From sequence record OP114733: a stretch of DNA of 64,000 nt; one strand, written 5' to 3'. The notes beneath the pieces are model-generated. The model saw only the letters and a program-made list of their open reading frames with translations, had not been told where the DNA came from and made no database searches. This DNA is from Escherichia phage vB_EcoM-pEB20. Positions 47,078-62,267 of the stretch are shown here, piece by piece (position 1 is the stretch's first letter; every line of letters begins with the position of its first letter). The position numbers were made by a program, and so were the translations under genes.

Positions 47078-47617
47078 ATGAGAACATTTTTAACTGGACC
47101 TTATCTATCCCTGATGAATGCTTTTACACACCATTCTGATGCTAGAGTAGAAGAAATTTGTAAGAACGGTTATGTCCCGCCATTTGAAGACGTACTCAAG
47201 CAGTACTGCACACTTCGTTTAGACGGCGGCCGACAATCAGGTAAATCAATTGCTGTGACTAACTTTGCTGCTAATTGGCTGTATGATGGTGGAACAGTTA
47301 TTGTTCTTTCTAATACTTCAGCTTATGCTAAAATTTCTGCTGGCAACATTAAAAAAGAATTTTCTCGTTATTCTAGCGATGATATTCGATTCCGTTTATT
47401 TACTGATTCTGTTCGTAGTTTTATTGGCAATGAAGGTTCTAAATTCCGTGGATTAACGCTTTCTCGTATTCTGTATATAATTGACGAGCCTATTAAAGCT
47501 CCTGATATGGATAAGATTTACAATGTACATATTAAAACAGTCCAACACTGTTGCAAAAGCAAATATTGCATCGGCGGTAATGCTCGTCCTCAATTTTTTG
47601 TGATTGGAATGCAATGA
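47078..47617 (+). CDS. small P-loop NTPase
   Basis: Walker A GGRQSGKS and Walker B-like ILYIIDEP; about 179 aa. Confidence 0.55.
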   Translation: MRTFLTGPYLSLMNAFTHHSDARVEEICKNGYVPPFEDVLKQYCTLRLDGGRQSGKSIAVTNFAANWLYDGGTVIVLSNTSAYAKISAGNIKKEFSRYSSDDIRFRLFTDSVRSFIGNEGSKFRGLTLSRILYIIDEPIKAPDMDKIYNVHIKTVQHCCKSKYCIGGNARPQFFVIGMQ

Positions 47618-47922
47618 TGACAACTATTGAAGTTTTTGAGTATTGTTATAACAGCCCAGTATGCAATAAAAGGGCTCTTGTAGAAAATTACGAGATTTAC
47701 CATTTTAAACCTAAACGATACCGTTTGACTAAAGGTCCGTTCGCAGGGCAGCAGGTTCTTTGTACTGCTCCTAATGCACGGTTGATGACTAGTATTCCGC
47801 ATTTCAAAATGGAATTTATTGACGGGCCATTTAAGGGATTAATCACTCAAAGTTTAATGGCGTTTAATTCCGACCCATTTTTGATTAAAGAAAAAACTTG
47901 GATAAATTTATTTTCTAATTGA
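47614..47922 (+). CDS. hypothetical protein
   Basis: 102 aa, ATGA-coupled to the P-loop ORF. Confidence 0.5.
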   Translation: MMTTIEVFEYCYNSPVCNKRALVENYEIYHFKPKRYRLTKGPFAGQQVLCTAPNARLMTSIPHFKMEFIDGPFKGLITQSLMAFNSDPFLIKEKTWINLFSN

Positions 47923-47928
47923 GGTTAT

Positions 47929-48291
47929 ATGAAAGCATATCAAATTCTTGAAGGTACACATAAAGGCACTATTTATTTTGAAGATGGTACTCAAGCCCGG
48001 ATTATTGTCTCTAAAACTTTTAAAGAAGACGCTATTGTAGACCCAGAAATTTTCTACGGTTTGCATGCCCGTGAAATTGAAATTGAACATCAACCTAAAG
48101 TTAAAATTGAAGGTGGTCAACATCTGAATGTTAACGTTCTGCGTCGTGAAACTCTAGAAGATGCAGTTAAGCATCCGGAAAAATATCCGCAGCTGACCAT
48201 CCGTGTATCCGGTTATGCAGTTCGCTTTAACTCTCTGACTCCGGAACAGCAGCGCGACGTTATCGCTCGCACCTTTACTGAGAGTCTATAA
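47929..48291 (+). CDS. autonomous glycyl-radical cofactor (GrcA/YfiD-like; T4 Y06I-like)
   Basis: glycyl-radical motif RVSGYAVRF; C-terminal 60 aa resemble E. coli GrcA from memory. Confidence 0.8.
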
Positions 48292-48515
48292 TGGCTAAAT
48301 TGATTATAGAAGGGTCTGAAGATGTTTTAAAATGTTTTGCCGCCTGGTTTAGTTGCTCAGGCGAGCAATCATTCACTGAAGCATTTAGAACGGGTGATAT
48401 TACTGGAAAATATCCGACAACCGATATCACTGTACGTGGATATGGTATTAATGAGCCTATCCAATTGGTCGAATATGACCTTGCCACCGATGAGGAAATT
48501 CCTTATGTCGATTGA
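48291..48515 (+). CDS. hypothetical protein
   Basis: 74 aa ORF. Confidence 0.45.
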   Translation: MAKLIIEGSEDVLKCFAAWFSCSGEQSFTEAFRTGDITGKYPTTDITVRGYGINEPIQLVEYDLATDEEIPYVD

Positions 48516-48771
48516 AGACATCAAAGGCTACAAGCCGCATACCGATGATAAAATCGGTAAAGTGAACGCTATTAAAGATGCAGAAGTCCGTCTTGGATTG
48601 TTGTTTGATGCTCTGATTGAAGAAGCATATATCTTGAAAGAAAATGAAACAGAGCAACAAACCAAAGAAGATATGGATGCAGTGCAGGCTCTTAAGTATG
48701 CTAAGCAACATCTAAAAGAAGCCAGCATGTGGGCGTGTCGTGCAGTATTTCGACCTGAGGAAAAATACTAA
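48505..48771 (+). CDS. hypothetical protein
   Basis: ATG MSIEDIKGYK inside a longer track ORF. Confidence 0.45.
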   Translation: MSIEDIKGYKPHTDDKIGKVNAIKDAEVRLGLLFDALIEEAYILKENETEQQTKEDMDAVQALKYAKQHLKEASMWACRAVFRPEEKY

Positions 48772-48986
48772 TGGCTTCTACTATTACTGGGTTATTGGAC
48801 TTTCAAGAAAAGGTCAACAAAATTTGTAGTGAATACTTAAAGTATCTTGAAGAAGACCTTGAAGATTGTAAGGAAGAAGGCGAAGAAGACTATGCTGACC
48901 AGCGTCGACGCCAAATCGAAGAGATGAGGCATTTCGCCAATATAGTATCTAAAGAATCTTGGGCTTTAACTCCATTTTATCAATAA
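48771..48986 (+). CDS. hypothetical protein
   Basis: 71 aa ORF. Confidence 0.45.
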   Translation: MASTITGLLDFQEKVNKICSEYLKYLEEDLEDCKEEGEEDYADQRRRQIEEMRHFANIVSKESWALTPFYQ

Positions 48987-48990
48987 AGTA

Positions 48991-49020
48991 GTTTACTTCT
49001 CCTCTAGTTGTGTTACTATA
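48991..49020 (+). promoter_or_regulatory. early promoter with flanking inverted repeat
   Basis: GTTTAC; cctctagttg ... caactagagg flanks the -10 and includes the regB SD. Confidence 0.45.
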
Positions 49021-49047
49021 GACCTGTCAACTAGAGGAGAAATCAAA

Positions 49048-49506
49048 ATGACTATCAATTCAGACGTTTTTATCCGCCGTAATAAACTCCGTCGAATCTT
49101 TGAAACGGAGTTCCGCAAAATAAATGCCGGTATAAAAGATGCTGCAAAGTCTCTTGGACTACCAGGCTTTCATATCAAGTATTCTCAACATCTCTTAGAT
49201 CGTGCCATCCAGAGAGAAATAGATGAGAATTACGTTTTTGAATTATTTCATAAAGTAAAAAATCACGTTAAAGAAGTTGCAGAATTTTTGTCAATGCCGG
49301 CACGTCCAGATGTTGATGAAGATTTTGTCGAAGGTGTCGAGTATCGTCCAGGCCGTTTAGAAATAACTGACGGAAATCTTTGGTTAGGACTTACAGTTTG
49401 TCGCGAAAATCCGGCATTCAAAATGAAGACTCTTCAATGCAGAATGGCTATTATTAACAGTAAACGACTACCAGGAAAAGCTTCTAAAGCAGTGATTAAA
49501 ATCTAG
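49048..49506 (+). CDS. regB: RegB site-specific endoribonuclease
   Basis: 152 aa; MTINSDVFIRRNKLRR...KYSQHLLDRAIQREIDE...RLPGKASKAVIK matches T4 RegB. Confidence 0.92.
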   Translation: MTINSDVFIRRNKLRRIFETEFRKINAGIKDAAKSLGLPGFHIKYSQHLLDRAIQREIDENYVFELFHKVKNHVKEVAEFLSMPARPDVDEDFVEGVEYRPGRLEITDGNLWLGLTVCRENPAFKMKTLQCRMAIINSKRLPGKASKAVIKI

Positions 49507-49514
49507 AGGTAAAC

Positions 49515-50057
49515 ATGAGAAAAGCACTACTCGCTGGTCTATTTGCTCTTTCATTATCAGCACATAGCTCCGAGCATACTTTTAGTAATGTCCAACTCGA
49601 TAACTTGAATTATGCTTATCAGTTTGGGGAACAGTTTTCTAAGGACGGAAAATTTAAAACGCATGAAAATATGCATAAGAAAGGACTTGGATACATAATG
49701 GCCGCAATACTATGGCAGGAATCATCCGCCGGTATTAATCTTAAAGATAAGAAAGGTCACCATGCGTATGGAATGTTCCAAAATTATCTACCAACAATGA
49801 GGGCAAGAATTAACCAGCTTGGTTATAATATGACTGATGCCCAAATTAAGAAAATGCTATCTAAGCGGTCTAATTCAGCCAGATGGGCTTATATCGAATT
49901 TTCTTATTGGTTAAATATACATAACGGGGATATAAGAAAAGCTATATCCTCATATAATGCGGGATGGAAGACAAGTGCTGGAAGTAAATATGCTTCTGAA
50001 GTCCTAGAAAAGGCTAATTACCTTAAATCAAATAAACTACTGGAAATAAAAGAATGA
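49515..50057 (+). CDS. secreted lytic transglycosylase-like protein (SLT motifs)
   Basis: signal peptide MRKALLAGLFALSLSAHS; motifs WQESS, AYGMFQ, SYNAGW. Confidence 0.65.
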   Translation: MRKALLAGLFALSLSAHSSEHTFSNVQLDNLNYAYQFGEQFSKDGKFKTHENMHKKGLGYIMAAILWQESSAGINLKDKKGHHAYGMFQNYLPTMRARINQLGYNMTDAQIKKMLSKRSNSARWAYIEFSYWLNIHNGDIRKAISSYNAGWKTSAGSKYASEVLEKANYLKSNKLLEIKE

Positions 50058-50401
50058 CCAAAATGTTGGCTTTAATAGTTGGCTTGGTTTCATTTAACGC
50101 TCTTGCTAATACTACATATACTGATGTAACGGAGTATACAAACAGAACGGCGTCTGATTATTGCGGTAAAAGTCAAGAGTGTAAAGTAGATTTTTCACAA
50201 AAATTGTTATATGCGTATAAAGACGGAGAAAAAGATGGGGCGTCTAGTAGGTTCAAGGCGTCTACCTTAATTAAAAGATACTATAAAAAATGGCAAATAT
50301 TAGAATGCTCGGTGGCGGAACCTAAAGATAAGGCAGCATGCAATTCTATGGTGGACCGTCTAGTTGACTCTTATAATAGAGGACTTGCAGCAAGTGATTA
50401 A
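50054..50401 (+). CDS. small secreted protein
   Basis: 115 aa with N-terminal signal peptide; ATGA-coupled to the SLT-like gene. Confidence 0.55.
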   Translation: MTKMLALIVGLVSFNALANTTYTDVTEYTNRTASDYCGKSQECKVDFSQKLLYAYKDGEKDGASSRFKASTLIKRYYKKWQILECSVAEPKDKAACNSMVDRLVDSYNRGLAASD

Positions 50402-50861
50402 AAACTATATCAAGGGCGATATTGTCGCCCTGTTTTCTAAAGGTAATAATATTGCTCACGGGTGTAATTGTTTTCATACAATGGGCGCCGGTGTAGCAGG
50501 CCAATTAGCAAAGGCTTATCCAAAAATTTTAGAAGCCGATAAACTTCAAACCGAATTCGGAGACGAGTCTAAACTCGGGACTTATTCGGTTTATGAAAAA
50601 TATTTTAAGACCCATAAAGCTTATTGCTTTAATCTTTATACACAGTTTGAGCCGGGACCTAATTTTGAGTACTCTGCTTTAATGAATTGTATAATAGAAT
50701 TAAATGAATTCGGAAAGAATAAGATAACAAAGCCTGTAATTTATATGCCAAGAATTGGTGCAGGTATTGGTGGTGGAAACTGGGATGTCATCGAAGAGAT
50801 TTTAGATACGTATTCCACTAAACTAGAAATTGTGATTGTTGATTGGGAACCGTTATTATGA
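50394..50861 (+). CDS. macro domain protein (TARG1/DarG-type ADP-ribose hydrolase fold)
   Basis: GTG start assumed; motifs KGDIVALF, HGCNCFHTMGAGVAG, MPRIGAGIGGGNW. Confidence 0.7.
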   Translation: MIKNYIKGDIVALFSKGNNIAHGCNCFHTMGAGVAGQLAKAYPKILEADKLQTEFGDESKLGTYSVYEKYFKTHKAYCFNLYTQFEPGPNFEYSALMNCIIELNEFGKNKITKPVIYMPRIGAGIGGGNWDVIEEILDTYSTKLEIVIVDWEPLL

Positions 50862-51070
50862 ATATACATTATCCACATCCATATGATCCAAAGAATAAGG
50901 CAGTAATTATTCGTCAATGGGAACGCATTTGTCGTACTAAATGTCCAATTAATAGTCCACATGATGTAGATAAAGACTACATCGGAACATTCGTTGAATA
51001 TACCTTTATTGATAAGAAAGGCCGTAAACAACATGTAGAAGAATATTGCTTAAAGGTGACATGGCTATGA
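50858..51070 (+). CDS. hypothetical protein
   Basis: ATGA overlap with macro gene stop. Confidence 0.45.
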   Translation: MNIHYPHPYDPKNKAVIIRQWERICRTKCPINSPHDVDKDYIGTFVEYTFIDKKGRKQHVEEYCLKVTWL

Positions 51071-51273
51071 GTCAAACAAAAATTCTTACAGGTGCTAAAT
51101 GCGAAAAATGCGAATGGCCTGTAGTTTTTGCTTTATGCAATGACGAAATGGCTTGTGATTTTGATTATTGGTGTTACTGTTCGAACAAAGGTTGTAGCAA
51201 TCATAAAGGTGAAGGGTTTTACTCAGGATTTTACCCTTACCCAGATTTCGTTAAAGAAGGTGAACCTAAATGA
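51067..51273 (+). CDS. cysteine-rich (zinc-binding?) small protein
   Basis: 68 aa with CEKCEW ... CDFDYWCYCSNKGC. Confidence 0.5.
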   Translation: MSQTKILTGAKCEKCEWPVVFALCNDEMACDFDYWCYCSNKGCSNHKGEGFYSGFYPYPDFVKEGEPK

Positions 51274-51452
51274 AATTGACTAAAGAAGAGAAAGCTAAAC
51301 TGTTCGAACTTATCCATGACCTATTGGATGAGCAAGCAGCCACCAATGCGTACGATGAATATGCTCCTTTAACAGATGAAGAATATAATGCATTGATGGA
51401 ATCATTTGACAGGAAAGAACAAGAACTCATTGACTACGTGAATTCACTATAA
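51270..51452 (+). CDS. hypothetical acidic protein
   Basis: 60 aa. Confidence 0.45.
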   Translation: MKLTKEEKAKLFELIHDLLDEQAATNAYDEYAPLTDEEYNALMESFDRKEQELIDYVNSL

Positions 51453-51461
51453 AGGACTCTT

Positions 51462-52043
51462 ATGGCTAGTTTAATTTTTACCTATGCCGCTATGAACGCT
51501 GGTAAGTCTGCTTCATTACTTACTGCCGCACATAACTATAAAGAACGTGGCATGGGTGTATTAGTTCTTAAACCGGCTATTGATACTCGCGATTCAAAAG
51601 GTGAAATAGTCTCTCGTATTGGTATTCGTCAGGATGCCAATATAATTACAAAAGACATGGATATCTTTGAATTCTATAAATGGGCTGCAGCACAAAAGGA
51701 TATTCACTGTGTATTTGTTGACGAAGCTCAGTTCTTAACTACTGAAAAGGTGTATCAACTTAGTCGTATTGTTGACGTATACAATGTGCCGGTAATGGCA
51801 TATGGACTACGAACAGATTTTAAAGGTAATCTATTTGAAGGTTCTCAAGCATTAATGGCTATTGCCGATAAGCTTGTTGAACTTAAAGGTGTCTGTCATT
51901 GTGGTAAAAAGGCCACAATGGTAGCTAGAGTCACGGAAGACGGACTTCCAATTACAGATGGCAGTCAAATTGAAATTGGTGATACAGATAGATACGTGTC
52001 ATTATGCCGGAAGCATTGGAACGATTTGACAGGGTTGTTATAA
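51462..52043 (+). CDS. tk: thymidine kinase
   Basis: 193 aa; P-loop AAMNAGKSASLL; C-terminal zinc knuckle CHCGKKA...CRKH. Confidence 0.93.
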   Translation: MASLIFTYAAMNAGKSASLLTAAHNYKERGMGVLVLKPAIDTRDSKGEIVSRIGIRQDANIITKDMDIFEFYKWAAAQKDIHCVFVDEAQFLTTEKVYQLSRIVDVYNVPVMAYGLRTDFKGNLFEGSQALMAIADKLVELKGVCHCGKKATMVARVTEDGLPITDGSQIEIGDTDRYVSLCRKHWNDLTGLL

Positions 52044-52070
52044 ATACTAATATCTAACCAAGAGGTATAT

Positions 52071-52283
52071 ATGCAGCAATTAAACGAAAGACAACTTCGT
52101 AATCTTACTGTAACCCAATTGGATGAAATCCGAAGAGAATTAGGACATTCTATTTCTCATTTAAACGAGGATATCCGTCAAACTGGTTCTAAAGCTGATT
52201 ATACACGCAAGCGCAAGCTGGAAAAATACCTCACAGATGTTAAGGCCGTCCAAAGGCGAAAAATAAATACTGGCCAAAATTAA
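52071..52283 (+). CDS. hypothetical protein (rI.-1 position)
   Basis: 70 aa between tk and rI. Confidence 0.5.
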
Positions 52284-52295
52284 CAGGAGGCCTAT

Positions 52296-52598
52296 ATGGC
52301 CTTAAGAGCGATAGCTGTCATGGCGATGCTGGGGTTTTTTGCAGCAACAACTCCTATCGTTGGTACTGCATATATCGACCCATATTTTGATAACTTTATG
52401 GAATCAGGGATTAAAAACGTATATACTTTGTTTGAAATTCAAAATGTCGAGAATTCTGAAAAATTCTATAAGTATATGGCAAAGCATTACAAAAATAGCC
52501 CCTGTGATGATGCATTTGAATGTCATGAACAAGGCATAAAAACTGCCAGACAATTTGCTGAGTTCATGAAAATAAAATTAGAGCCTACATCTATCTAA
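52296..52598 (+). CDS. rI: lysis inhibition regulator RI (antiholin)
   Basis: 100 aa; signal-anchor MALRAIAVMAMLGFFAATT then DPYFDNFMESGIKNVY; matches T4 RI. Confidence 0.88.
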   Translation: MALRAIAVMAMLGFFAATTPIVGTAYIDPYFDNFMESGIKNVYTLFEIQNVENSEKFYKYMAKHYKNSPCDDAFECHEQGIKTARQFAEFMKIKLEPTSI

Positions 52599-52603
52599 TT
52601 TAC

Positions 52604-52633
52604 TAGCCCCTTCCTTATGGTTGGGGCTTTTTG
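52604..52633 (+). terminator. rho-independent terminator
   Basis: agcccc-ttccttatggtt-ggggct followed by TTTTTGG. Confidence 0.65.
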
Positions 52634-52643
52634 GCATCTATCA

Positions 52644-52672
52644 GTTTACTTCTCCTCAGGTTGTGTTATAGT
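52644..52672 (+). promoter_or_regulatory. T4-type early promoter
   Basis: GTTTAC; -10 gtgTTATAGT; partial inverted repeat ctcctc ... gaggag. Confidence 0.4.
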
Positions 52673-52699
52673 AGTCCTTACTTACTAGAGGAGAACGTT

Positions 52700-52879
52700 A
52701 TGACACGTAAAGAAAAGATTTCTAAGTTAATGTTTTTGATTGAAGAGTACGCTAATGCGGTATCTGATTGGGAAAATGCCCATGGTTGCGAAGATGGAGA
52801 CATCGACATTAACAGAGCTATGAAAAAGATGGCCGAAGCCCACACCGAATTGCAAATGTATGTTAACGAGATTATGTGA
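52700..52879 (+). CDS. hypothetical protein (rI.1 position)
   Basis: ATG MTRKEKISKL after GAGGAGAA. Confidence 0.5.
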   Translation: MTRKEKISKLMFLIEEYANAVSDWENAHGCEDGDIDINRAMKKMAEAHTELQMYVNEIM

Positions 52880-52886
52880 GGATATT

Positions 52887-53093
52887 ATGCTTTACGATTA
52901 TACTGGAAAATCTGAAGACGGTGTACTTGAACTTTTACCTGAAAGCGCTGAAGATGATGATATGGTGGTGATGTTTTGTAAAAATGGTCCTGGGGATAAG
53001 GGATGGATTTATCTTCGCCAAGAAAATGACCTAATTGTTTTGGACCCTAAACAAGTTGAAGAACTTTATCAACATTTAAAACATAATCGGTAG
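52887..53093 (+). CDS. hypothetical acidic protein
   Basis: ATG MLYDYTGK. Confidence 0.45.
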   Translation: MLYDYTGKSEDGVLELLPESAEDDDMVVMFCKNGPGDKGWIYLRQENDLIVLDPKQVEELYQHLKHNR

Positions 53094-53122
53094 TTTACAT
53101 GCTAATAGGACTATGATATAGT
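53093..53122 (+). promoter_or_regulatory. early promoter in stem-loop cassette (PeSL-like)
   Basis: GTTTACA; ataggacta/tagtcctat inverted repeat. Confidence 0.45.
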
Positions 53123-53150
53123 AGTCCTATCAAATCAATTGGAGAACAAA

Positions 53151-53261
53151 ATGAAACTTTTGCTTATCGCTTATGTTGTAGTACAATACAATTATCCGAT
53201 GTTTACTTATAACATGGTAAACGGCATAGTGAATCTTATTGAAACGAGTATGGTAAAATGA
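53151..53261 (+). CDS. very small hydrophobic ORF (36 aa)
   Basis: ATG after TTGGAGAA; MKLLLIAYVVVQY...; found manually. Confidence 0.3.
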   Translation: MKLLLIAYVVVQYNYPMFTYNMVNGIVNLIETSMVK

Positions 53262-53373
53262 CCCGTGAACAAGCTAATAAATTGATGGACCTTATTTAAT
53301 TTTTATAGAAATCAGGTTGATGCTCGTCAGAATGATTTGGTGAATTTTGTTGAAACTTTAATTGGTGAATAAT

Positions 53374-53904
53374 ATGAAAACTGTAATTGAAACGACTGAG
53401 TTGTTTGGTGATTTATGTATCGAAAAACGTGGTTATGCGTACGTTCTGACGCAAGAAGATGATGTTGTTACTATTCTTCCTATGGAACTAGACAAGATTT
53501 TGAAACTCAATCCACCCGGCCATGCATCTGTAATTAACATTGATGAAGACCTTCAAGTTCGTTTTTATCACAGTCTTTATAGTGGGGTTAATATCGAAAC
53601 AGAAGATGAATGCCTTTCTATCAATAATTGGAAAACATTCGTCACTAAGGTGAAAGAATTCATAGAATCTGAAACAGCCAAAAAGGCCAAACTTCAATGG
53701 GCTAAATGCCGTAATGCTTTTATTACAAATCAGGACCGCCCTGACTATACAACAGTCCTAGGCGTTAATCCTTCTTATGAAGACGGTGATGTCGTAGTTA
53801 TTCGCCAAATTGATGACCTTCGTCAGCATATCATTACATTAGACAAAGATGAAGCAGTTGCTCTTAAAGCTTATCTCGATTCTATTATCCCGACTTTGAA
53901 ATAA
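53374..53904 (+). CDS. hypothetical protein
   Basis: MKTVIETTEL...; 176 aa. Confidence 0.5.
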   Translation: MKTVIETTELFGDLCIEKRGYAYVLTQEDDVVTILPMELDKILKLNPPGHASVINIDEDLQVRFYHSLYSGVNIETEDECLSINNWKTFVTKVKEFIESETAKKAKLQWAKCRNAFITNQDRPDYTTVLGVNPSYEDGDVVVIRQIDDLRQHIITLDKDEAVALKAYLDSIIPTLK

Positions 53905-53913
53905 GGAATTATT

Positions 53914-54387
53914 ATGATTATCAATGAAAACTCTTGGCATTTTAAAATTTATGCCGCGTTCAATAGTACATGGAATCGCCCGAAAACGTTGTGTGCTTAT
54001 TTTTGGAAAACGTTAATCCCAGTATTGGCTGTTTCAATTATTGGATTTGCGATTTTAGCAGCAGTCACAATCATTGGCCATGAAATTTTAACTAAATTCT
54101 TTGTTTTTAGCAGTCTATGGACATTAGTTCCAGCCTCAATTGGTGTAGGCATTTTATTGGTAGCAGTCATGGCTTTTATTTCTACCGGGTTGGTAATTGG
54201 TCCGTCTTGGTTGTTAGACAAATATAACGACAGAAAATATTATAAAGAAATTGAGCTCATTGCACAAAACCAAGAACGAATTAAAAATGGACTTGAGCCT
54301 ATTGAACGTAAGAAATCATTAATAGGCGAATACCTTAAAGCTCGTAAAGAAAAAGTCTGTCCTACTCTTGAATATAAGGCTAAATGA
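53914..54387 (+). CDS. membrane protein
   Basis: 157 aa with three predicted transmembrane helices. Confidence 0.55.
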   Translation: MIINENSWHFKIYAAFNSTWNRPKTLCAYFWKTLIPVLAVSIIGFAILAAVTIIGHEILTKFFVFSSLWTLVPASIGVGILLVAVMAFISTGLVIGPSWLLDKYNDRKYYKEIELIAQNQERIKNGLEPIERKKSLIGEYLKARKEKVCPTLEYKAK

Positions 54388-55373
54388 TGAAAACAATTAT
54401 GAAAGGCTACTTTGGTAGCCACCTTTATGGAACGTCTACCCCAGAATCTGACGTTGATTTTAAAGAAATTTATGTCCCTCATGCTCGTGATATCTTGACC
54501 GGTAACGTTAAAGAACATATGAGCAAGAACACGAATAACACATCTTCTAAGAACACAAAAGACGACGTGGACCATGAGTTATATAGTCTCAAATATTTCT
54601 TTAAACTAGCTGCGGATGGTGAAACTGTCGCATTAGATATGCTTCACACTCCACCAAGTCTAGTAGTTAAATCTGATTTGCCTGATGTATGGAAGTATAT
54701 TCAAGATAACAGGTCTCGTTTCTATACCACTAACATGAAATCTTATTTAGGGTATGTCCGTAAGCAAGCTTCTAAATATGGTGTCAAGGGTTCTCGACTG
54801 GCTGTTCTTCGTCAAGCCCTTAAACGTTCTAATGAATGGGGACAATACTTTGATAACGGTGCAGTAATTCGTTTATCACATATGAAGAATGTTCTGCCTG
54901 TAGGTGAATTTGCTTCATGGGTTGAAATCGAAAACGAGAAAACAGGTAAGCAAACATTCTATAATCTGTTAGACCGTAAATTCCAAGACACGTTAACCAA
55001 TAAAGAGTTCAATGCCATCCTGGTTAAACTGGAAGAGAACTATGGTGAACGTGCTCGTAAGGCAGAAGCTAACGAAGGTATTGACTGGAAAGCATTGAGT
55101 CATGCATGTCGTGGTGGACTTCAATTATTGGAAATTTACAAAACCGGCGACCTGGTTTACCCACTTCAGGATGCTCCATTTATTCTCGATGTTAAGCTTG
55201 GTAAACATACGTTTAAAACTGTACAAGAATTCCTAGAAGATATCGTTGACCAAGTTGAACATGCGTCAGAACAAGCTGCCAAGAATGGTATGCAACAAAA
55301 AGTAGATATGAGTTTCTGGGATGATTTCCTTGAGCAGGTCTATCTCGAAAATCATAATTCTTACTATAAATAA
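54384..55373 (+). CDS. polymerase-beta superfamily nucleotidyltransferase-like protein
   Basis: N-terminal GSHLYGTSTPESDVDF fits the GS-x9-13-DxD motif; 329 aa. Confidence 0.6.
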   Translation: MMKTIMKGYFGSHLYGTSTPESDVDFKEIYVPHARDILTGNVKEHMSKNTNNTSSKNTKDDVDHELYSLKYFFKLAADGETVALDMLHTPPSLVVKSDLPDVWKYIQDNRSRFYTTNMKSYLGYVRKQASKYGVKGSRLAVLRQALKRSNEWGQYFDNGAVIRLSHMKNVLPVGEFASWVEIENEKTGKQTFYNLLDRKFQDTLTNKEFNAILVKLEENYGERARKAEANEGIDWKALSHACRGGLQLLEIYKTGDLVYPLQDAPFILDVKLGKHTFKTVQEFLEDIVDQVEHASEQAAKNGMQQKVDMSFWDDFLEQVYLENHNSYYK

Positions 55374-55404
55374 ATAGATAAATAACCATTAACTTGAGGT
55401 AAAT

Positions 55405-55686
55405 ATGAAAAAATTAGTAATTGGTTTATTCGCAGTAATGATGGCATTCTCTGTTGGTGCTACCACGGGTTCAGCCAGCGGTAGTGCAGGAACTGGTGGT
55501 AACCAGTCTTCTGGGCCTTCCAACGGTTCGGTAAATGCATCACATTCTCAGGGTATTGAGAATATCAAATCAAGCTATATTAATAGCACGGCCGGACAAG
55601 CAACTGAAGCATGGTCAAAGGGTCGAGTAGTTACACGCTCCGTATTCTGTGATATGCCTAATTATGTTGCTAAGTGCGATAAGTAA
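55405..55686 (+). CDS. small secreted Gly/Ser-rich protein
   Basis: signal peptide MKKLVIGLFAVMMAFSVGA; two C-terminal Cys. Confidence 0.55.
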   Translation: MKKLVIGLFAVMMAFSVGATTGSASGSAGTGGNQSSGPSNGSVNASHSQGIENIKSSYINSTAGQATEAWSKGRVVTRSVFCDMPNYVAKCDK

Positions 55687-55690
55687 ATGT

Positions 55691-55710
55691 GGGGACCTTC
55701 GGGTCCCTTT
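55691..55710 (+). terminator. rho-independent terminator
   Basis: gggacc-ttcg-ggtccc followed by TTT. Confidence 0.55.
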
Positions 55711-55737
55711 AGGGGGTTAAAATATTTTTAAAAAGTG

Positions 55738-55768
55738 GTGTACATGCTTTTAGGATATGTTATTATAG
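55738..55768 (+). promoter_or_regulatory. candidate early promoter
   Basis: GTGTAC -35 variant; -10 TATTATAG; downstream tagacctatc motif. Confidence 0.35.
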
Positions 55769-55804
55769 ACCTATCGAAACGAAATGAGTAAATTGGAGAA
55801 TAAA

Positions 55805-56785
55805 ATGTTCAACGTTCAAATCAAAAAAGGTATCTATCGTAATAACGAAATCTCTGGTTCTTATGTTGCCACAAAGACCTGGTTCCCGGCAAAGCTTAAT
55901 CCTGAATGTTCCCACTTAGGTGATGGTAAAATTTTCGTTATGATTGATGGTTCTGAACGTGGAGTATGGGTCTTCAAATCAGACATCGTAATGGAAGGAG
56001 TTGAGACGTCACCGGTTGCAGTTGTTGAAAGCACTGAAGATATGAAAACTCGTATCAACAAACGCTTTAAAGTAATGAACATGATGACGAATGGTATTAT
56101 CGATGGCAAAATTCGTTCACTCATTATTTCAGGTGCAGCCGGTATCGGTAAGACGTATTCTCTGGATAAAGCACTTAATAGTGCTAATGATAACGGTTTC
56201 ATCAAATACAAAAGCATTAATGGTAAAATCTCTGGTATTGGCCTTTACGAACAACTTTGGCTCAACCGTGATGCAGACAGCGTTCTCTTAATCGACGACG
56301 TTGATGTATTCTCAGATATGGATATCTTGAACCTTCTTAAAGCAGCATTAGATACCGGTGATAAACGCAAAGTTTGTTGGAGCACTGCGTCATCTTATCT
56401 TGATGATAAGGGTATTGATAAAGAATTTGAGTTTGAAGGTACTATCGTTTTCATTACAAACGTTGATATTGATAAAGAGTTAGAACGCGGTTCGAAACTT
56501 GCTCCGCACCTTCAAGCTTTAGTATCTCGTTCAGTGTATCTCGACCTTGGAGTACACTCTAATGAAGAGATTATGGTTCGAGTTGAAGATGTAATATTAT
56601 CTACTGACATGATGCAGAAACGTGGCTTGACTGATGCTGAAACGTACAAAGCATTGTCCTGGATGAAGGCTAACGTATCTCGTCTTCGCAATGTATCATT
56701 ACGTACGGCTCTTTATGTAGCAGATTTTATTTCAACTGATAAAGATGGTTGGGAGGAAATCTCTGAAGTAACTTTACTGAAATAA
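55805..56785 (+). CDS. AAA+/P-loop ATPase
   Basis: Walker A ISGAAGIGKT, Walker B VLLIDDVD, sensor-like FITN; about 326 aa. Confidence 0.65.
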   Translation: MFNVQIKKGIYRNNEISGSYVATKTWFPAKLNPECSHLGDGKIFVMIDGSERGVWVFKSDIVMEGVETSPVAVVESTEDMKTRINKRFKVMNMMTNGIIDGKIRSLIISGAAGIGKTYSLDKALNSANDNGFIKYKSINGKISGIGLYEQLWLNRDADSVLLIDDVDVFSDMDILNLLKAALDTGDKRKVCWSTASSYLDDKGIDKEFEFEGTIVFITNVDIDKELERGSKLAPHLQALVSRSVYLDLGVHSNEEIMVRVEDVILSTDMMQKRGLTDAETYKALSWMKANVSRLRNVSLRTALYVADFISTDKDGWEEISEVTLLK

Positions 56786-56923
56786 GCTTATAGGAAGTTC
56801 TGAGGTAACAAAAGCCATAAAGATGAATAATCATATGGCTTACCTCAAAGAAGGACACCAGGAACCTACTGAGGGCATAGAAATATTTAAAAATAATGAT
56901 GTACAAATCAAAGAGGATATGTT

Positions 56924-57211
56924 ATGGATTTTATGCAAAAAATTAAAGCCGCAGTCGAACTGTATGCTCATCGTATGGTTAGTTCTACAATGCAATATAG
57001 CGAGGAGGTTCGCCAGGACTCTTCCTTGAAAGGAAAAACTAAAGCCTTAATTACCTTAGATCGTTTGCAAAAGAATGCCATAGAGATGCTCCAGTACGAC
57101 AAGGGTGTATATAAGAAAGAACAGGAAGAGAAACTTAAATCTGAAAAATTACAAAAAATCCCGAAGTCTGTTTGGTTCAGTGGAAAAAATACCGAAAAAA
57201 GTTTCTTTTAG
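56924..57211 (+). CDS. hypothetical Lys/Glu-rich protein
   Basis: 95 aa; chosen over overlapping frame 56823-57029 on composition. Confidence 0.4.
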   Translation: MDFMQKIKAAVELYAHRMVSSTMQYSEEVRQDSSLKGKTKALITLDRLQKNAIEMLQYDKGVYKKEQEEKLKSEKLQKIPKSVWFSGKNTEKSFF

Positions 57212-57213
57212 TT

Positions 57214-57245
57214 GTTTACAAGGTCTATGGTTATGTTATTATAGA
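57214..57245 (+). promoter_or_regulatory. T4-type early promoter
   Basis: GTTTACA; -10 TTATTATAG; tagacctatcaa downstream. Confidence 0.4.
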
Positions 57246-57269
57246 CCTATCAACTACTGGAGGTAAAAC

Positions 57270-57797
57270 ATGAACGCTAAAGATATTTTCAACCTGGTAA
57301 ATTATAACGACGGTAAATTTAAATCTGAAGCACAAAGCAAGTTCTTTAATGACGTTGCTTATGGTAACGAGATTACCGTGGACGGAGGTCAGATTTTCAA
57401 ATCTCGCTGGAATTGGATTGTTATCATCGATTCAGTTGGAATTGTGGAAGTCTACAAAAACACTAACAAAAAACGTACATTATTCTGGTCTCGTGAAACT
57501 AACGAGCAGTACAAAAAGGATAAAGCATCTCGTTTATCCAAAGTAACCCAGGAAGATATCGAGTTTATCAAGAAAGATATCGAGATGTACGAAAATTTAA
57601 TCGCTGAAGACCAGGCAGTACTCGATAAGTTTGATGAAATTAAAGCTTCTCGTGAAATCCCTGACTTCATGAAAGAATCAGTAAACGAACGATACGCTCT
57701 CACTTCAGAACGTATTGCAAACTATACAAAACAGAAAGCAGAACGTATTAGTACTCTTCGGAAATTTGAAGAACGTTTAAAGACGGTTCACGCATAA
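57270..57797 (+). CDS. hypothetical protein
   Basis: 175 aa after SD GGAGGT. Confidence 0.5.
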   Translation: MNAKDIFNLVNYNDGKFKSEAQSKFFNDVAYGNEITVDGGQIFKSRWNWIVIIDSVGIVEVYKNTNKKRTLFWSRETNEQYKKDKASRLSKVTQEDIEFIKKDIEMYENLIAEDQAVLDKFDEIKASREIPDFMKESVNERYALTSERIANYTKQKAERISTLRKFEERLKTVHA

Positions 57798-57859
57798 ACG
57801 CTTTACCCAAGGACGGGTTATAATGGTTCTGAGTTCCAATTCAATCTGAGGAAATAGTT

Positions 57860-58855
57860 ATGAGCATTACATCTGATGCGGTAAAACATGAAATTAACGG
57901 TTTATGTGCTTCACAGATTAAAGTGTGGTTTAAAGACCATAATGATCGCAGAGCACTTAATTATGAACAAATTGCTATCCAAGTTCATCAATTACTGGTT
58001 AGTAAATTTGATTTTCATATGCCGTCTGAAATCTATACTAATCTGCCGCGAGCACTTATTAAAGCGTGTAAAGGTTATGGAAAATCAATGGCTGATGGAA
58101 TCTTCAGCGCGCTGAATAAACTTAACGTTCTGTCGATGATTAACTCTAACAACATCCTTCGTAATCTAGGACGTACTGATTTGTTCGGTCGTGAACAGGG
58201 TAAAATGCCTTTGAAATGGATTGTTGCTCATCTTAACGAGAACCAAACACGTTTTATGGCCGTAACAGCACGCTTACAAATGGGCCTAGATCGTCAGATG
58301 AACTTTAAAACTCATCCACGTTATTCAGGTTCAACTGACTTTTATAAATGTGAGCTTCAAAAGGTTGCAGGTAAAACTGTCTTAGTAGTTCGTGTAACGT
58401 TTGAAGGACGACGTCAAGGATATTTTGACATAATCGGCTCCGGGCTTAAACATTGTGGATTTATCGACGAAGTTGATATCAAGCGAGACGGCATTGGATA
58501 CCGTATTGGATATGTTTGTACTCTTAAAGAAGAGATTTCAGGACCAGCACCAGGACTAAAAGACGTTAGATATAAAGACGAGCTCATTGAAGAAATAAAA
58601 GAAGTTGAATATGATATCAACCAAGAAGATGCTCTTAAAGACCTTATTGACGAACTAAACCAAGACTTTATTCCGGTTCAGAAATTTGAATCAAAACATG
58701 CTGAGCAAATCAAATACTTTGAAGCTTTGATTAACGAACTTAATGTAACTATTCAACAGACCGACGATGAAATCTCACGATTAGCAGGCTTAAATGGTAA
58801 AAATAAAACAGAACGAGCTAATCTTATTCAAGTAGTAAAACTTCTTAAGGAATGA
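57860..58855 (+). CDS. hypothetical protein with C-terminal coiled coil
   Basis: 331 aa. Confidence 0.55.
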   Translation: MSITSDAVKHEINGLCASQIKVWFKDHNDRRALNYEQIAIQVHQLLVSKFDFHMPSEIYTNLPRALIKACKGYGKSMADGIFSALNKLNVLSMINSNNILRNLGRTDLFGREQGKMPLKWIVAHLNENQTRFMAVTARLQMGLDRQMNFKTHPRYSGSTDFYKCELQKVAGKTVLVVRVTFEGRRQGYFDIIGSGLKHCGFIDEVDIKRDGIGYRIGYVCTLKEEISGPAPGLKDVRYKDELIEEIKEVEYDINQEDALKDLIDELNQDFIPVQKFESKHAEQIKYFEALINELNVTIQQTDDEISRLAGLNGKNKTERANLIQVVKLLKE

Positions 58856-58864
58856 TGTACAACC

Positions 58865-58894
58865 AAGGAAGGTTGGAGTATAATAAATTTTTCA
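58865..58894 (+). promoter_or_regulatory. T4-type early promoter
   Basis: ATGTACA -35 variant; ccaaggaaggttgg then TATAAT; near-duplicate of 59851. Confidence 0.45.
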
Positions 58895-58910
58895 ACATGA
58901 GGAATATAAA

Positions 58911-59846
58911 ATGGCTTCTATTACACGTAGAGAACTTATCAAAGAATTTACCTCGAACGCATATACCCCAGGACCTAATCCTATCCGTATGCCTGTAAAG
59001 ACTCCTGAAGAGATTGAGGAAATCTGTTCATATTATGGGATTAATTCTCGTAAGTTTACTCAATTTGAATGCGTTACTAACACACCCGTTAAAGAGTTCA
59101 TTAAAAATGGTGAGTTCAGCCGTTTATTAGCCAAACAGAAACTTCGTAATTTTTGTATCGGCGGTTACGGACAATATTTCGCTAAGCAGTTCCGGAATAA
59201 CCTTAACAATCTGATGGCCATTGCTTCTCGTATTCGTCCTCAAGCAATTAACATGAAACATTTGAAATATACTTACGATAAGTTGGAAATCATGGTTATC
59301 AGTGAGAATGAGTTCACTCTCACGTATAAACCTAAGAATGATAACGTTGCTCGTGTATTCCACCAAGCGTTGGAAGTGTTAGGTGATAATATTCACCAGA
59401 TTAAAGCAATTTATTCTCGTGAGCTTAATATTATCAACCCTATCAAGAATAAGGGCCATATCGCTATCCAGGCTCGTGTATCTATTGGTAAAAAGGTTCC
59501 TGCGCCATGGTGGCACAAAGACTCTGAATACTATCAAAATCTTAAAAAGGAAAATGCAACGTTCGAAGCGTCAATTACTGCAACACCAATTGGCCATGCT
59601 GAAGTTCTAGGTGCATATTCTACTGCTCCATCTATACACATTTCACCGTCGACTAAACTGGAAATCTCTAACGGTCTTCTTCCTGCCGAAGATTACCATT
59701 ATAATCAAATCAAGGCCACTGTAGACCAACTATCCGTTGAACTTGACAAAGCACAAGCTAAGCTTCGTGATGCTCAACAAGTAGTTACCAAGCTCCAGTT
59801 GCAGTACTCTAAACTTTTTAACGCAATGAATGCGTTAAAATCATAA
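58911..59846 (+). CDS. hypothetical protein with C-terminal coiled coil
   Basis: 311 aa. Confidence 0.55.
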   Translation: MASITRRELIKEFTSNAYTPGPNPIRMPVKTPEEIEEICSYYGINSRKFTQFECVTNTPVKEFIKNGEFSRLLAKQKLRNFCIGGYGQYFAKQFRNNLNNLMAIASRIRPQAINMKHLKYTYDKLEIMVISENEFTLTYKPKNDNVARVFHQALEVLGDNIHQIKAIYSRELNIINPIKNKGHIAIQARVSIGKKVPAPWWHKDSEYYQNLKKENATFEASITATPIGHAEVLGAYSTAPSIHISPSTKLEISNGLLPAEDYHYNQIKATVDQLSVELDKAQAKLRDAQQVVTKLQLQYSKLFNAMNALKS

Positions 59847-59850
59847 ATCA

Positions 59851-59880
59851 GTTTACAACCAAGGATGGTTGGAGTATAAT
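59851..59880 (+). promoter_or_regulatory. T4-type early promoter
   Basis: GTTTACA then 18 bp (accaaggatggttggag) then TATAAT. Confidence 0.55.
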
Positions 59881-59908
59881 GAATTTATCTTAACGAGAGG
59901 AAAATATT

Positions 59909-60859
59909 ATGACACGTTCACATTACATTGAATACTTTGCAGGTCTTATCGCTAACGTTCATGCCCAACGTGCTTCTGGTGCACTAGGATTTGATGTTCC
60001 ACACCGAGATGTAGTAAGTGGTATTCTTCGCGATTTTGGTACATACACAGGCCAAGAAAATCATATCTGTAAAGATACTCAGAATGCGTATTCTCATTCA
60101 TTAGGGACGCTGCTTCAATGGTTCAAACGTTCTCGTTTATTATCTTCTACTGTAGCTCGCGATAACATTAAAAACTTTATGAAACCGAGCTTTATTAAAT
60201 CTGTGACATCTAAAACTGATTTGGTTGAATTCACTATTGTTAATGATGTTAAAAAGACTCATTTGGCTGATTGGTTATCTACCATTCCTGAAACTAAATT
60301 TGCTGATAAATTTGCTTGTGAATTCAATAAACAAGTGAATATGCTTTTTAAACATTCTCGTAAATTATTCACTGGCGGTGATGGCCGTACAAATAAAGTT
60401 CATGTTAAAGATTGGGTTACTGCAGTATTCAAACCAACTGGTAATGGTAACGCATCATTATCAATTGATATCCAGGTTCCTTATTACTACTCACGTAATC
60501 TCGGTACCATGAAAGCCGAAGAAATTAATAAGCACAACAAAACTATTCGTTCGTTGTCTTATAAACTTATTACATTGTTAGAGACTATGGATGTTGTTGA
60601 AACGTTCGACGAATCCGAAGATAACGGTTCAATGTTATATAGTTCTCGTACCCGAATTAAGTTGAAGAACCCTAACGAGTATAAACTTAAGACTATTAAA
60701 GAACCTAAAGTAGAAAAGGTTGATATCATGGCTGAAGAACGTGAATATCTCAAATCTCGTCTGAAAGAAGTCGAAGCCCAGATTGCAGAACAAACTAAAT
60801 CGTTAAAAGCTCTGAATGCGAAAGCGGATGGTTTACGAAATGCCATTGAGGTGTTATAA
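59909..60859 (+). CDS. hypothetical protein with C-terminal coiled coil
   Basis: 316 aa. Confidence 0.55.
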   Translation: MTRSHYIEYFAGLIANVHAQRASGALGFDVPHRDVVSGILRDFGTYTGQENHICKDTQNAYSHSLGTLLQWFKRSRLLSSTVARDNIKNFMKPSFIKSVTSKTDLVEFTIVNDVKKTHLADWLSTIPETKFADKFACEFNKQVNMLFKHSRKLFTGGDGRTNKVHVKDWVTAVFKPTGNGNASLSIDIQVPYYYSRNLGTMKAEEINKHNKTIRSLSYKLITLLETMDVVETFDESEDNGSMLYSSRTRIKLKNPNEYKLKTIKEPKVEKVDIMAEEREYLKSRLKEVEAQIAEQTKSLKALNAKADGLRNAIEVL

Positions 60860-61164
60860 TGAGCCTACGTCTTTTAGAGGATATTGATATGAGCACTAAT
60901 CATGACTTGGTTAAGTTTATTGACGATAGTTCAAAGATTGAATTTGTTCAGCGAGATAAAATCCACGGTGAAGAAGAGTTCGTTCCTCCGGCATGGAACG
61001 AAATAATGAAAATGGTTGAACGACGTGAAAATGCTGCCAAATCGGCAGCAAAACATCCATGCCCGGAATGTGGAACTATCCAAGTCCAACTGGTTAACTG
61101 GACCACTGATAACTTGAAATTGAAATGCCGTAAATGCTTCCACAAATTTGAGAGAACATTATAA
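60859..61164 (+). CDS. zinc-ribbon protein
   Basis: 101 aa; CPECG ... CRKC four-Cys motif. Confidence 0.5.
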   Translation: MSLRLLEDIDMSTNHDLVKFIDDSSKIEFVQRDKIHGEEEFVPPAWNEIMKMVERRENAAKSAAKHPCPECGTIQVQLVNWTTDNLKLKCRKCFHKFERTL

Positions 61165-61577
61165 TGAGATATAGCCTTCGTTGTTTTATCGCAGCTTTAG
61201 TTTTTGCTATTATTCCATTCATTTGGAACAGCCAGAATACTTACATGGAAACTAAAGTAATTCCTGTGGAGGTAGTGGAATTAATCTCAGGCCAATCTAC
61301 AGGAAAATATTCTAAATTAGAATTTATTGCAGTCTATAAAGATGAGCAAGGACGAGTTTTTGACAGGCGTGTATCACCGTCGTTTTATACGCTTCTGAAT
61401 AAAGGTGATACGATAGCTATAGAAATTCGTGAGATGGATATCAAACAAACTACTAAAGATAACTTGATTTGGTTCTTTGGTACGGTGTTGTTGGTTTCTA
61501 TCTGTATCACAGGTTTTATTACATGTATTGTATTTGGCATTGCATATTTAATCGATGAAAGGAAAAATAATGTTTAA
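61164..61577 (+). CDS. membrane protein
   Basis: 137 aa; N- and C-terminal transmembrane helices. Confidence 0.5.
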   Translation: MRYSLRCFIAALVFAIIPFIWNSQNTYMETKVIPVEVVELISGQSTGKYSKLEFIAVYKDEQGRVFDRRVSPSFYTLLNKGDTIAIEIREMDIKQTTKDNLIWFFGTVLLVSICITGFITCIVFGIAYLIDERKNNV

Positions 61578-61833
61578 AGTGTACGGGTATGACTCTACTA
61601 TTCATAAATGCATTTATTGTGATAATGCGAAACGATTGCTGACTGTTAAGAAACAGCCGTTCGAATTCATTAACGTGATGCCAGAAAAAGGTGTTTTTGA
61701 TGATGAGAAAATTGCTGAGCTTCTGGTTAAGCTTGGACGTGAATCACAAGTCGGATTGACTATGCCTCAAGTGTTTGCTCCTGACGGAAGTCACATTGGT
61801 GGATTTGATCAACTGCGAGAATATTTTAAATGA
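61570..61833 (+). CDS. nrdC: thioredoxin/glutaredoxin NrdC
   Basis: MFKVYGYDSTIHKCIYCDNAKRLL matches T4 NrdC; redox site CIYC. Confidence 0.92.
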   Translation: MFKVYGYDSTIHKCIYCDNAKRLLTVKKQPFEFINVMPEKGVFDDEKIAELLVKLGRESQVGLTMPQVFAPDGSHIGGFDQLREYFK

Positions 61834-62045
61834 TGCTTGAAGGAACTGATTATATCCATGACTACCGCGGAAGCGCGGTATATGTAGGTGATGAAGTTGC
61901 AGTTTATTATGGGTATGGAACTTTGATGACAGCCAAGGTTATTCAAATTAAAAATAATCGTGCTAAACTCGAAGTTTATTATTCTAATGGCGAAAAGTCT
62001 ATTTCTAAATGGAAATACGGCGATTGCATGGTCAAACTGGGGTAA
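61830..62045 (+). CDS. hypothetical protein
   Basis: 71 aa, ATGA-coupled to nrdC. Confidence 0.5.
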   Translation: MMLEGTDYIHDYRGSAVYVGDEVAVYYGYGTLMTAKVIQIKNNRAKLEVYYSNGEKSISKWKYGDCMVKLG

Positions 62046-62047
62046 AT

Positions 62048-62218
62048 ATGATTTACGATATTAGTGCAGCAAGAGCTCCATCAATGGTTACTATTCCTGT
62101 TGAAGAATTAGATCGTCTTCAGAAAATTGAAGAGCTTCTTTGGGAAATTGAATCTGATTTGCCATCTGGGCTAGAATCCTGGATTGATTATGAAGAACTT
62201 AATAAGCTCCGCGGTTAA
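62048..62218 (+). CDS. hypothetical protein
   Basis: ATG MIYDISAAR. Confidence 0.4.
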   Translation: MIYDISAARAPSMVTIPVEELDRLQKIEELLWEIESDLPSGLESWIDYEELNKLRG

Positions 62219-62267
62219 ACCATGGTATTCGGCTCGATGGGAGACGGTCGAGCCAGACGTCGAAACA

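Follow-up and report, generated by a model that had tools for sequence, protein, structure and literature searches.

The vs.6 gene of Escherichia phage vB_EcoM-pEB20, which lies on the plus strand of the 64,000-nucleotide stretch of record OP114733 analysed here (hereafter, the window), is a mosaic: an old, AT-rich 5' half that is specific to phages is followed by a tract of ~175 nucleotides (nt) that comes from the grcA gene of the bacterial host. In the usual description, the classical T-even phages and their hosts have no DNA in common. Weighing all the evidence presented below, we consider it likely that vs.6 encodes the T-even spare part for pyruvate formate-lyase (PFL) and that the gene became a mosaic by conversion against host grcA. 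The gene and the three segments into which it divides are as follows:

47929-48291, plus strand: vs.6 coding sequence (ortholog of T4 Y06I; GrcA-like autonomous glycyl-radical cofactor), from the table of open reading frames, nucleotide matches, Pfam, PHROG and PDB
47929-48106, plus strand: phage-type 5' segment, codons 1-59 and the first base of codon 60; AT-rich, a divergent homologue of the N-terminal half of GrcA
48107-48281, plus strand: host-derived conversion tract covering the whole glycyl-radical domain (I60/E61 to T117), from alignment, breakpoint statistics and the triplet test
48282-48291, plus strand: phage-type 3' end, GAG AGT CTA TAA, where the clade-specific differences resume

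A sharp junction within vs.6

At the protein level, residues 61-120 of the vs.6 product are identical to residues 68-127 of E. coli GrcA in all 60 positions, while only 17 of the 59 N-terminal residues (~29%) are shared. The preliminary description of this locus, made from the sequence alone, had called the N-terminal half divergent, which is correct, and had described the last ~60 residues as nearly identical to the host protein, which also stands, although in the 63-residue string that it quoted 2 of the first 3 residues differ (VKI versus VRV). The DNA shows the same division: E. coli grcA shares 87/178 nucleotides (49%) with the 5' part and 178/185 (96%) with the 3' part (183/185 in T4); uniform divergence from the host gene along its whole length, which was looked for, is clearly not the case. 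The tract itself (48107-48281) is 97.7% identical to E. coli grcA, with 4 differences in 175 positions, all of them synonymous (48123, 48129, 48156 and 48270). The T4 gene carries no difference from E. coli over gene nt 179-356 (178 nt, 100% identity), and the tract in the window ends 3 nt earlier on the 3' side.

The alignment proposed in the preliminary description as a way to locate the breakpoint was run at nucleotide and protein level, and places a sharp junction at 48106/48107. The maximum chi-square value falls at this position, gene nt 178/179 (chi2 = 103.2), a value reached by 0 of 10,000 permutations, of which the highest gave 22.7; the same position was obtained for the window gene, for T4 and for a Klebsiella phage. 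A triplet test took a Karamvirus gene for the phage parent and E. coli grcA for the host parent; phage-like and host-like informative sites stood at 62:12 in the 5' part and 4:38 in the 3' part of the window gene (p = 1e-15), and at 61:8 and 0:41 in T4 (p = 1.6e-22). Base composition changes at the same place: the GC content of third codon positions (GC3) of the window gene is 0.18-0.19 before the junction and 0.38 after it, and across the phage genes the 3' parts reach 0.38-0.57 against 0.18-0.19 in the 5' parts, whereas the two parts of E. coli grcA are uniform (0.39 and 0.43). A local GC peak of 0.45-0.47 extends across 48100-48300.

The 5' half is not unrelated to GrcA, and profile (HMM) and phmmer alignments to the bacterial protein extend back to residues 18-21. 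Its nucleotide identity is 59-92% among the T-even phages and 43-51% between phage and bacterial genes, a conservation that suggests some phage-specific constraint. At the other end of the gene, the final codons GAG AGT CTA are also found in Cronobacter phage leB and in Klebsiella phage KP1LMA.

Protein constraint and assembly artefact as explanations of the tract

The C-terminal 60 residues are near-invariant across very different phages and bacteria, which could favour the idea that no recombination occurred and that the resemblance to the host arose from extreme purifying selection on the radical domain, perhaps aided by convergent codon usage. We regard this as extremely improbable, since it is at odds with the synonymous sites. 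(i) When the codons of the C-terminal domain were compared with E. coli grcA, 53/60 were identical in the window and 58/60 in T4, against 212/430 (~49%) in eight pooled control phages (p = 3.6e-9 for the window); phages with an identical or near-identical C-terminal protein share only ~45-55% of their codons with E. coli. In Cronobacter phage leB the 61 C-terminal residues are those of E. coli GrcA, yet only 33/61 codons are identical. (ii) Among ~80 further phage homologues from IMG/VR, a collection that is dereplicated and therefore gave only six close T-even relatives, the only host-like genes are those of the T4 type and the RB69 type (179-183/186 to E. coli) and that of a Jiaodavirus (175/186 to Klebsiella pneumoniae grcA). 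In this comparison with E. coli and Klebsiella-type grcA, no host-like tract was found in T5-like, Karamvirus, Pseudotevenvirus, Krischvirus, Aeromonas or jumbo phages, the genes of which have 117-160/186 positions (63-86%) in common with E. coli, as protein constraint predicts; a T5-like gene has 72% nucleotide identity to E. coli grcA. (iii) The Klebsiella phages match the synonymous sites of Klebsiella instead. Together with the triplet test, these codon identities uphold the recombination with a host gene that had been suggested initially. A cause at the RNA level for the nucleotide conservation was also sought, and no Rfam match was obtained in 47600-48600 at E <= 1.

The host-like tract could also be an artefact of assembly or contamination, with host reads merged into a phage contig. 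Nothing but the unusual identity speaks for this explanation. It is excluded, and we assign it a negligible probability, since hundreds of independent records (about 750, including T4, T2, RB14, RB27 and RB69) have the same junction; moreover, the junction is in frame and inside a conserved operon. Every one of 5,426 complete E. coli genomes has a grcA that is matched by the 186-nt 3' part of vs.6 (96.8% for the best allele), whereas the other 63.6 kb of the window (searched as 1-23000, 23000-47900 and 48300-64000) gave no megablast match in the same genomes. The 3' part of vs.6 is an isolated island of host DNA in the window.

E. coli-type and Klebsiella-type tracts

The donor of the tract differs between phages. 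In Jiaodavirus and Slopekvirus, two unrelated genera of Klebsiella phages, the protein reads TLLDAVEH where TLEDAVKH stands in E. coli GrcA and in the phages of E. coli, from which it was predicted that the GrcA of Klebsiella carries TLLDAVEH. A scan of one genome per species confirmed the prediction: a 127-residue GrcA with RRETLLDAVEH is present in K. pneumoniae ATCC 13883, K. michiganensis, K. spallanzanii, K. indica, Raoultella, Kosakonia, Kluyvera and others, the host-specific residues at positions 77 and 81 being E and K in E. coli and L and E in Klebsiella. Among the 46 bacterial genes encoding RRETLLDAVEH, the best match to the 3' half of the Jiaodavirus gene is that of K. pneumoniae (170/186; E. 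coli, 156/186). The reciprocal comparison gives the same division: the 3' half of E. coli grcA matches 638 phage records at 95% identity or more (four of them at 99% or more), and the Klebsiella phages at 85-89%, while the 3' half of K. pneumoniae grcA matches 106 records at 95-99%, almost all labelled as Klebsiella phages, and the E. coli phages at 80-90%. The T-even phages of Klebsiella have 97-98% identity to K. pneumoniae grcA, and the most K. pneumoniae-like tract found is that of Klebsiella phage KPV15 (98.2%); the Salmonella-labelled phage PSE-D1, of the Jiaodavirus type, is an exception to the labels and carries a Klebsiella-type tract.

A different arrangement is seen in the Slopekvirus KP1LMA. 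Here a patch of 15 nt, CTG GAT GCG GTT GAA, is identical to Klebsiella and Raoultella grcA, including two synonymous sites, while the backbone outside the patch is like that of phage leB, with a phage-type 3' half. This looks like short-patch conversion that imported both Klebsiella-specific residues. The distribution of tracts thus implies that conversion from host to phage over the full domain has occurred at least twice and independently, with E. coli and Klebsiella as donors, and probably a third time as the short Slopekvirus patch.

Some further observations were made on these genes. The residues L77 and E81 of the Klebsiella type equal L716 and E720 of PflB at the aligned positions (codons 77-81, 48157-48171 in the window, against PFL 716-720); therefore, the Klebsiella type would be the PflB-like state and the E. 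coli type the derived one. In KPV15 (KY000080.1) a frameshift interrupts the 5' half of vs.6, for which two short open reading frames are annotated; this would be either a sequencing error or a decaying gene. A copy of grcA is carried by the 276-kb plasmid unnamed4 of Klebsiella sp. WOUb02, and an enterobacterial-type grcA in a contig of Vagococcus sp. WN89Y, which has a Firmicute label, is probably contamination.

Direction of transfer

Sequence identity alone carries no direction, and one could suppose that it was the 3' halves of E. coli and Klebsiella grcA that were copied from phages. We give hardly any credence to this reverse transfer. The bacterial genes are uniform in GC3 (0.39, 0.43), whereas the phage genes jump at the junction (from 0.18-0.19 to 0.38-0.41 in the E. 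coli phages); the rest of the window has no match in the E. coli genomes; the 3' halves of E. coli and K. pneumoniae grcA differ from each other as orthologs do (164/186), while each phage clade matches its own host; and the private mutations of the phages radiate like a star from the E. coli sequence. Because the bacterial genes are uniform in composition and diverge like orthologs, and because each phage clade matches its own host, the direction is from host to phage.

Recurrent conversion or a single event

The phages of E. coli allow us to ask whether the tract was acquired once or is renewed. We compared 12 E. coli-phage genes, belonging to a T4 type (T4, IME537, OES_C-2 and four IMG/VR genomes) and to an RB69 type (the window, RB69, WFL6982 and two IMG/VR genomes). 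The two types are separated by 9 fixed differences in the first 177 nt of the gene and by none in the tract (nt 181-351; Fisher p = 0.0035), and a fixed difference reappears at gene nt 360, with nt 358 nearly fixed. Within the tract, nearly all differences from E. coli are private to one phage, and T4, L127 and OES_C-2 have none. The end points vary: the tract reaches nt 356 in T4 and nt 353 in the window, and in KPV15 it includes codon 60. OES_C-2 even has the E. coli-type AGC CTG, and its 3' end is at 184/185 the most E. coli-like of the phages compared. One of the four window differences, the T at 48129, is also a natural variant among E. coli alleles; a closer allele for the window tract was sought in the E. 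coli genomes, and the best one (96.8%) accounts for 1 of the 4 differences. Finally, RB69 is stated in PMC6024577 to be unable to recombine with T4.

An alternative to repeated conversion is that there was one replacement per host type, followed by vertical descent and exchange between phages, with conversion no longer ongoing. At least two events would be needed, but the E. coli-phage data could reflect a single tract that spread among co-infecting phages, and some lineages have indeed drifted (6 private changes in IME537, 5 in WFL6982). A single event sits poorly with the absence of fixed differences in the tract next to 9 in the adjacent 177 nt, with the tracts of T4, L127 and OES_C-2 that are identical to E. 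coli, with the variable end points, with the window variant that equals an E. coli allele, and with the reported inability of RB69 and T4 to recombine; we hold it to be unlikely, while leaving it an appreciable share of the probability. Because of the lack of fixed tract differences, the star pattern, the varying ends, the shared E. coli variant and the non-recombination of RB69 with T4, the comparison favours a conversion against the host gene that recurs over one ancient event.

Two of these phages have peculiarities of their own. OES_C-2 (PQ642263.1) carries a 6-nt in-frame deletion just 5' of the tract, which shortens EIEIE to EIE and the protein to 118 residues; the deletion puts its 5' positions out of register, and these were left aside in the comparison. 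WFL6982 has E106G in the otherwise invariant TPEQQRD of the radical domain, together with four further private changes in the tract, and may be a lineage without recent re-conversion.

Identity of the gene and its family

Further features of the locus are the following:

47921-47924, plus strand: Shine-Dalgarno-like GAGG, 4 nt 5' of the ATG and overlapping the stop codon of vs.7 (47920-47922); read from the sequence
48202-48228, plus strand: glycyl-radical signature RVSGYAVRF, residues 92-100, aligned to the G734 region of PFL

The open reading frame at 47929-48291 (plus strand) starts with ATG and encodes 120 residues that contain RVSGYAVRF, with the sequence and the motif as first quoted; the radical glycine is G95 (48211-48213), and the stop codon overlaps the ATG of vs.5 (TAATG). 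A megablast search of phage genomes matched the gene in 748 records, 737 of which cover at least 80% of it; the closest are Escherichia phage AV115 (98.1%), phiE142 (97.2%), RB69 vs.6 (96.7%) and T4 (94.2%). The neighbours stand in the same order as in T4 and RB69: e, denV, vs.8, vs.7, vs.6, vs.5, vs.4, regB, vs.1, vs and tk. Nucleotide identity and gene order therefore identify the phage, as far as the window represents it, as an RB69-like T-even phage (Mosigvirus) and the gene as vs.6, the ortholog of T4 Y06I. A scan for promoters and terminators around vs.6 gave counts no higher than in shuffled sequence.

The protein searches agree with this assignment. The product matches Pfam Gly_radical (PF01228) with 67.2 bits (cutoff 22.2) and PHROG 1209 over its full length (residues 1-120, E = 5.2e-63); phmmer aligns residues 21-120 with residues 27-127 of GrcA (PDB 6OWR; E = 1.9e-42), and PFL residues 696-759 are also matched (E = 3e-26). 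NCBIfam TIGR04365, the model of the GrcA equivalog, aligns residues 18-120 with 158.6 bits, E. coli GrcA itself scoring 233.9. Three features that characterise the GrcA family are present: a small stand-alone protein (~14 kDa) with its own start, Shine-Dalgarno sequence and stop, a PFL-type C-terminal radical domain, and homology in the N-terminal half, where identity is ~29%. The initial reading of the gene as a GrcA-like cofactor related to T4 Y06I is thus supported by its identity to T4, by the shared vs.8-vs.7-vs.6-vs.5 locus and by the match to 6OWR.

Shorter and more distant relatives deserve a comment. NF008341 (GrcA2) and NF038360 (GrcA3) are curated NCBIfam models for spare-part forms of 78-80 residues that have no N-terminal half, and the window protein matches both through its C-terminal domain only, below their cutoffs. 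In T5-like phages (AKFV33 and many Tequintavirus records) a GrcA-like gene lies beside the tRNA cluster, and its annotations are inconsistent: acetyltransferase-related, ribonucleotide reductase subunit or pyruvate formate-lyase.

Likely function: rescue of host PFL

E. coli YfiD (GrcA) and T4 Y06I are reported to be activated by the PFL-activating enzyme, to bind PFL that has been cleaved by oxygen and to restore its activity (Wagner et al. 2001, as summarised in PMC8683613), and GrcA is also reported to restore inactive full-length PflB in vivo (PMC9112899). The vs.6 protein is 96% identical to Y06I, and the five amino-acid changes are all in the N-terminal half. Because of this identity, and because its radical domain is identical to that of host GrcA, the likely function of the vs.6 product is the rescue of host PFL. 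During infection, the host enzyme PflA would install the radical on G95; the activated protein would then dock on oxygen-cleaved host PflB and PFL activity would be restored, which could maintain the fermentative supply of acetyl-CoA and ATP during phage replication in the microaerobic gut, where oxygen fluctuates. It is also conceivable, though we would rather doubt it, that re-copying from the current host is adaptive, host PflA and PflB needing an exact replica of the local GrcA, residues 77 and 81 included.

A second partner had been raised, as a speculation, in the preliminary description: the phage anaerobic ribonucleotide reductase NrdD, the oxygen-damaged form of which the vs.6 protein would rescue. 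The 5' part of its gene lies at the end of the window:

63450-64000, plus strand: 5' part of nrdD (anaerobic ribonucleotide reductase), first 183 codons, running past the end of the window; given as context

The fragment shares 180/183 residues (98%) with the N-terminus of RB69 NrdD, and in RB69 the gene order is 49-nrdD-nrdG. A role as spare part for NrdD, possibly activated by phage NrdG, would draw on three points: (i) T-even phages encode both NrdD and NrdG; (ii) in Aeromonas phage Ah1 (NC_055733.1) the order is nrdD-nrdG-vs.6-nrdC-nrdH, the only hint from synteny; and (iii) because the Pfam domain is shared, a genome comparison of 2006 guessed that the protein acts in nucleotide metabolism (PMC1524935). 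Indeed, vs.6 and the radical domain of phage or E. coli NrdD have in common their glycyl-radical chemistry and a domain name at the level of the Pfam clan. Yet they show no significant sequence similarity: BLASTP between vs.6 and RB69 NrdD detected none (E = 11), the NrdD motif being RRTCGYLG; its radical motif and tail, RRTCGYLGNPNERGF, is unrelated to the radical segment of vs.6, as is the motif and tail RRTCGYLGNPNERGFNLGK, and the NrdD C-terminus, ending in NTIRRTCGYLGNPNERGFNLGKNKEIMHRVKHQ, is unrelated to the C-terminal sequence of vs.6. The vs.6 domain, on the other hand, closely copies PFL 696-759 and does not differ from that of host GrcA. Since the domain is re-copied from host grcA, the partner would therefore be a host protein rather than NrdD, and we consider the NrdD proposal, which these comparisons do not support, very improbable.

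Proposed route of conversion and points that weigh against recurrent conversion

T-even phages fragment the DNA of the host and replicate via very active homologous recombination. In the route we envisage, fragments of host DNA freed by the phage nucleases would be assimilated by the UvsX-type recombination and replication machinery. The tract covers exactly the segment in which protein constraint would keep phage and host DNA similar enough to pair. A first conversion would have to pair DNA that is ~75-80% identical, and once converted the tract would be a near-perfect target for further conversion. A host single strand could be assimilated up to the limits of homology and its non-homologous tails trimmed, and such single-strand assimilation would fit the tract better than two classical crossovers.

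Not everything agrees with a recurrent conversion of a PFL spare part, and the following points weigh against it: (i) the tract nearly fills the only homologous segment, which leaves almost no flanking homology for two crossovers; (ii) the sequences paired in the first event had to be only about 75-80% identical; (iii) IME537 and WFL6982 carry 5-6 private changes, and spread between phages after one acquisition is possible, the comparison comprising 12 sequences; (iv) the E. coli-type tract is also present in Tequatroviruses whose labels name Hafnia, Yersinia, Citrobacter or Pseudomonas as the host; (v) the TIGR04365 score of 158.6 bits lies under the 170-bit cutoff for the equivalog; (vi) the evidence for PFL rescue, as given in PMC8683613, was obtained in vitro and for the T4 protein only; and (vii) residues 77 and 81 may match the host through neutral hitch-hiking and not through adaptation. 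With regard to the labels, of which Pseudomonas phage PsgM02F, Hafnia phage IsaacDaniel and the Yersinia and Citrobacter Tequatroviruses are examples, the tract follows the phage lineage rather than the label of isolation. As for the score, it falls below the cutoff because of the divergent N-terminal half; the vs.6 protein is predicted to work like GrcA, yet it is no strict equivalog of the bacterial type by the NCBIfam threshold.

Comparison with known systems and significance

vs.6 resembles several systems and has important differences from each of them. (i) The gene shares with T4 Y06I (vs.6) its length of 120 residues, 94.2% of its nucleotides and 96% of its amino acids, its position between vs.7 and vs.5 and the mosaic junction, and differs in the 4 synonymous changes and the earlier 3' end of the tract. 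(ii) With E. coli GrcA (YfiD; 6OWR, TIGR04365) it has in common the C-terminal 60 residues and a homology that begins at residue ~18-21, but the N-terminal half is divergent, the protein is 7 residues shorter, and the phage gene stands in an early-region operon and not beside ung. (iii) The C-terminal domain of PflB (696-759; PDB 1H16, 2PFL) is the same domain, with RVSGYAVRF around G734, whereas the vs.6 product, of 14 kDa, stands alone and lacks the catalytic barrel, and its sequence is of the GrcA type, not of the PflB type TKEQQQDVITRTFTQSM. (iv) The closest evolutionary analogue is the intragenic recombination of the cyanophage genes psbA and psbD (Sullivan et al. 2006, PMC1484495), in which a host-derived metabolic gene of a T4-like phage also exchanges segments with the host copy. 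The features that define such a psbA-type mosaic are found in vs.6: a supported breakpoint, synonymous identity beyond constraint, and a donor that changes with the host lineage. In contrast to psbA and psbD, the vs.6 tract is a single short domain (~175 nt), up to 100% identical to the host, it occurs in classical enteric T-even phages, and its donors switch cleanly by host genus (E. coli versus Klebsiella).

vs.6 was already known: it is widely annotated, its T4 ortholog has been characterised biochemically, and our analysis adds nothing new to its biochemistry. The new element is the host-tracking gene conversion, a modestly new observation. The literature that we found on Y06I, YfiD, vs.6 and GrcA consists of papers on function and a comparison of T4-like genomes, and mentions neither the nucleotide identity to the host nor the switch by genus, although an earlier mention is possible.

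Taken together, these results indicate that in the T-even phages one island of ~175 nt has 98-100% identity to chromosomal grcA, and that the Klebsiella allele takes its place in the Klebsiella phages. The tract shows directly that recombination between strictly virulent phages and the chromosomal DNA of their hosts takes place in nature, and probably does so repeatedly. Residues 77 and 81 are candidates for a host-specific fit of the spare part, and the vs.6/grcA pair offers a simple experimental handle on the rate and the genetic requirements of gene conversion from host to lytic phage. If re-copying from the current host is indeed adaptive, vs.6 and grcA would represent an ongoing and measurable channel of gene conversion from the host into virulent phages, and a natural reporter of the sampling of host DNA by lytic phages.

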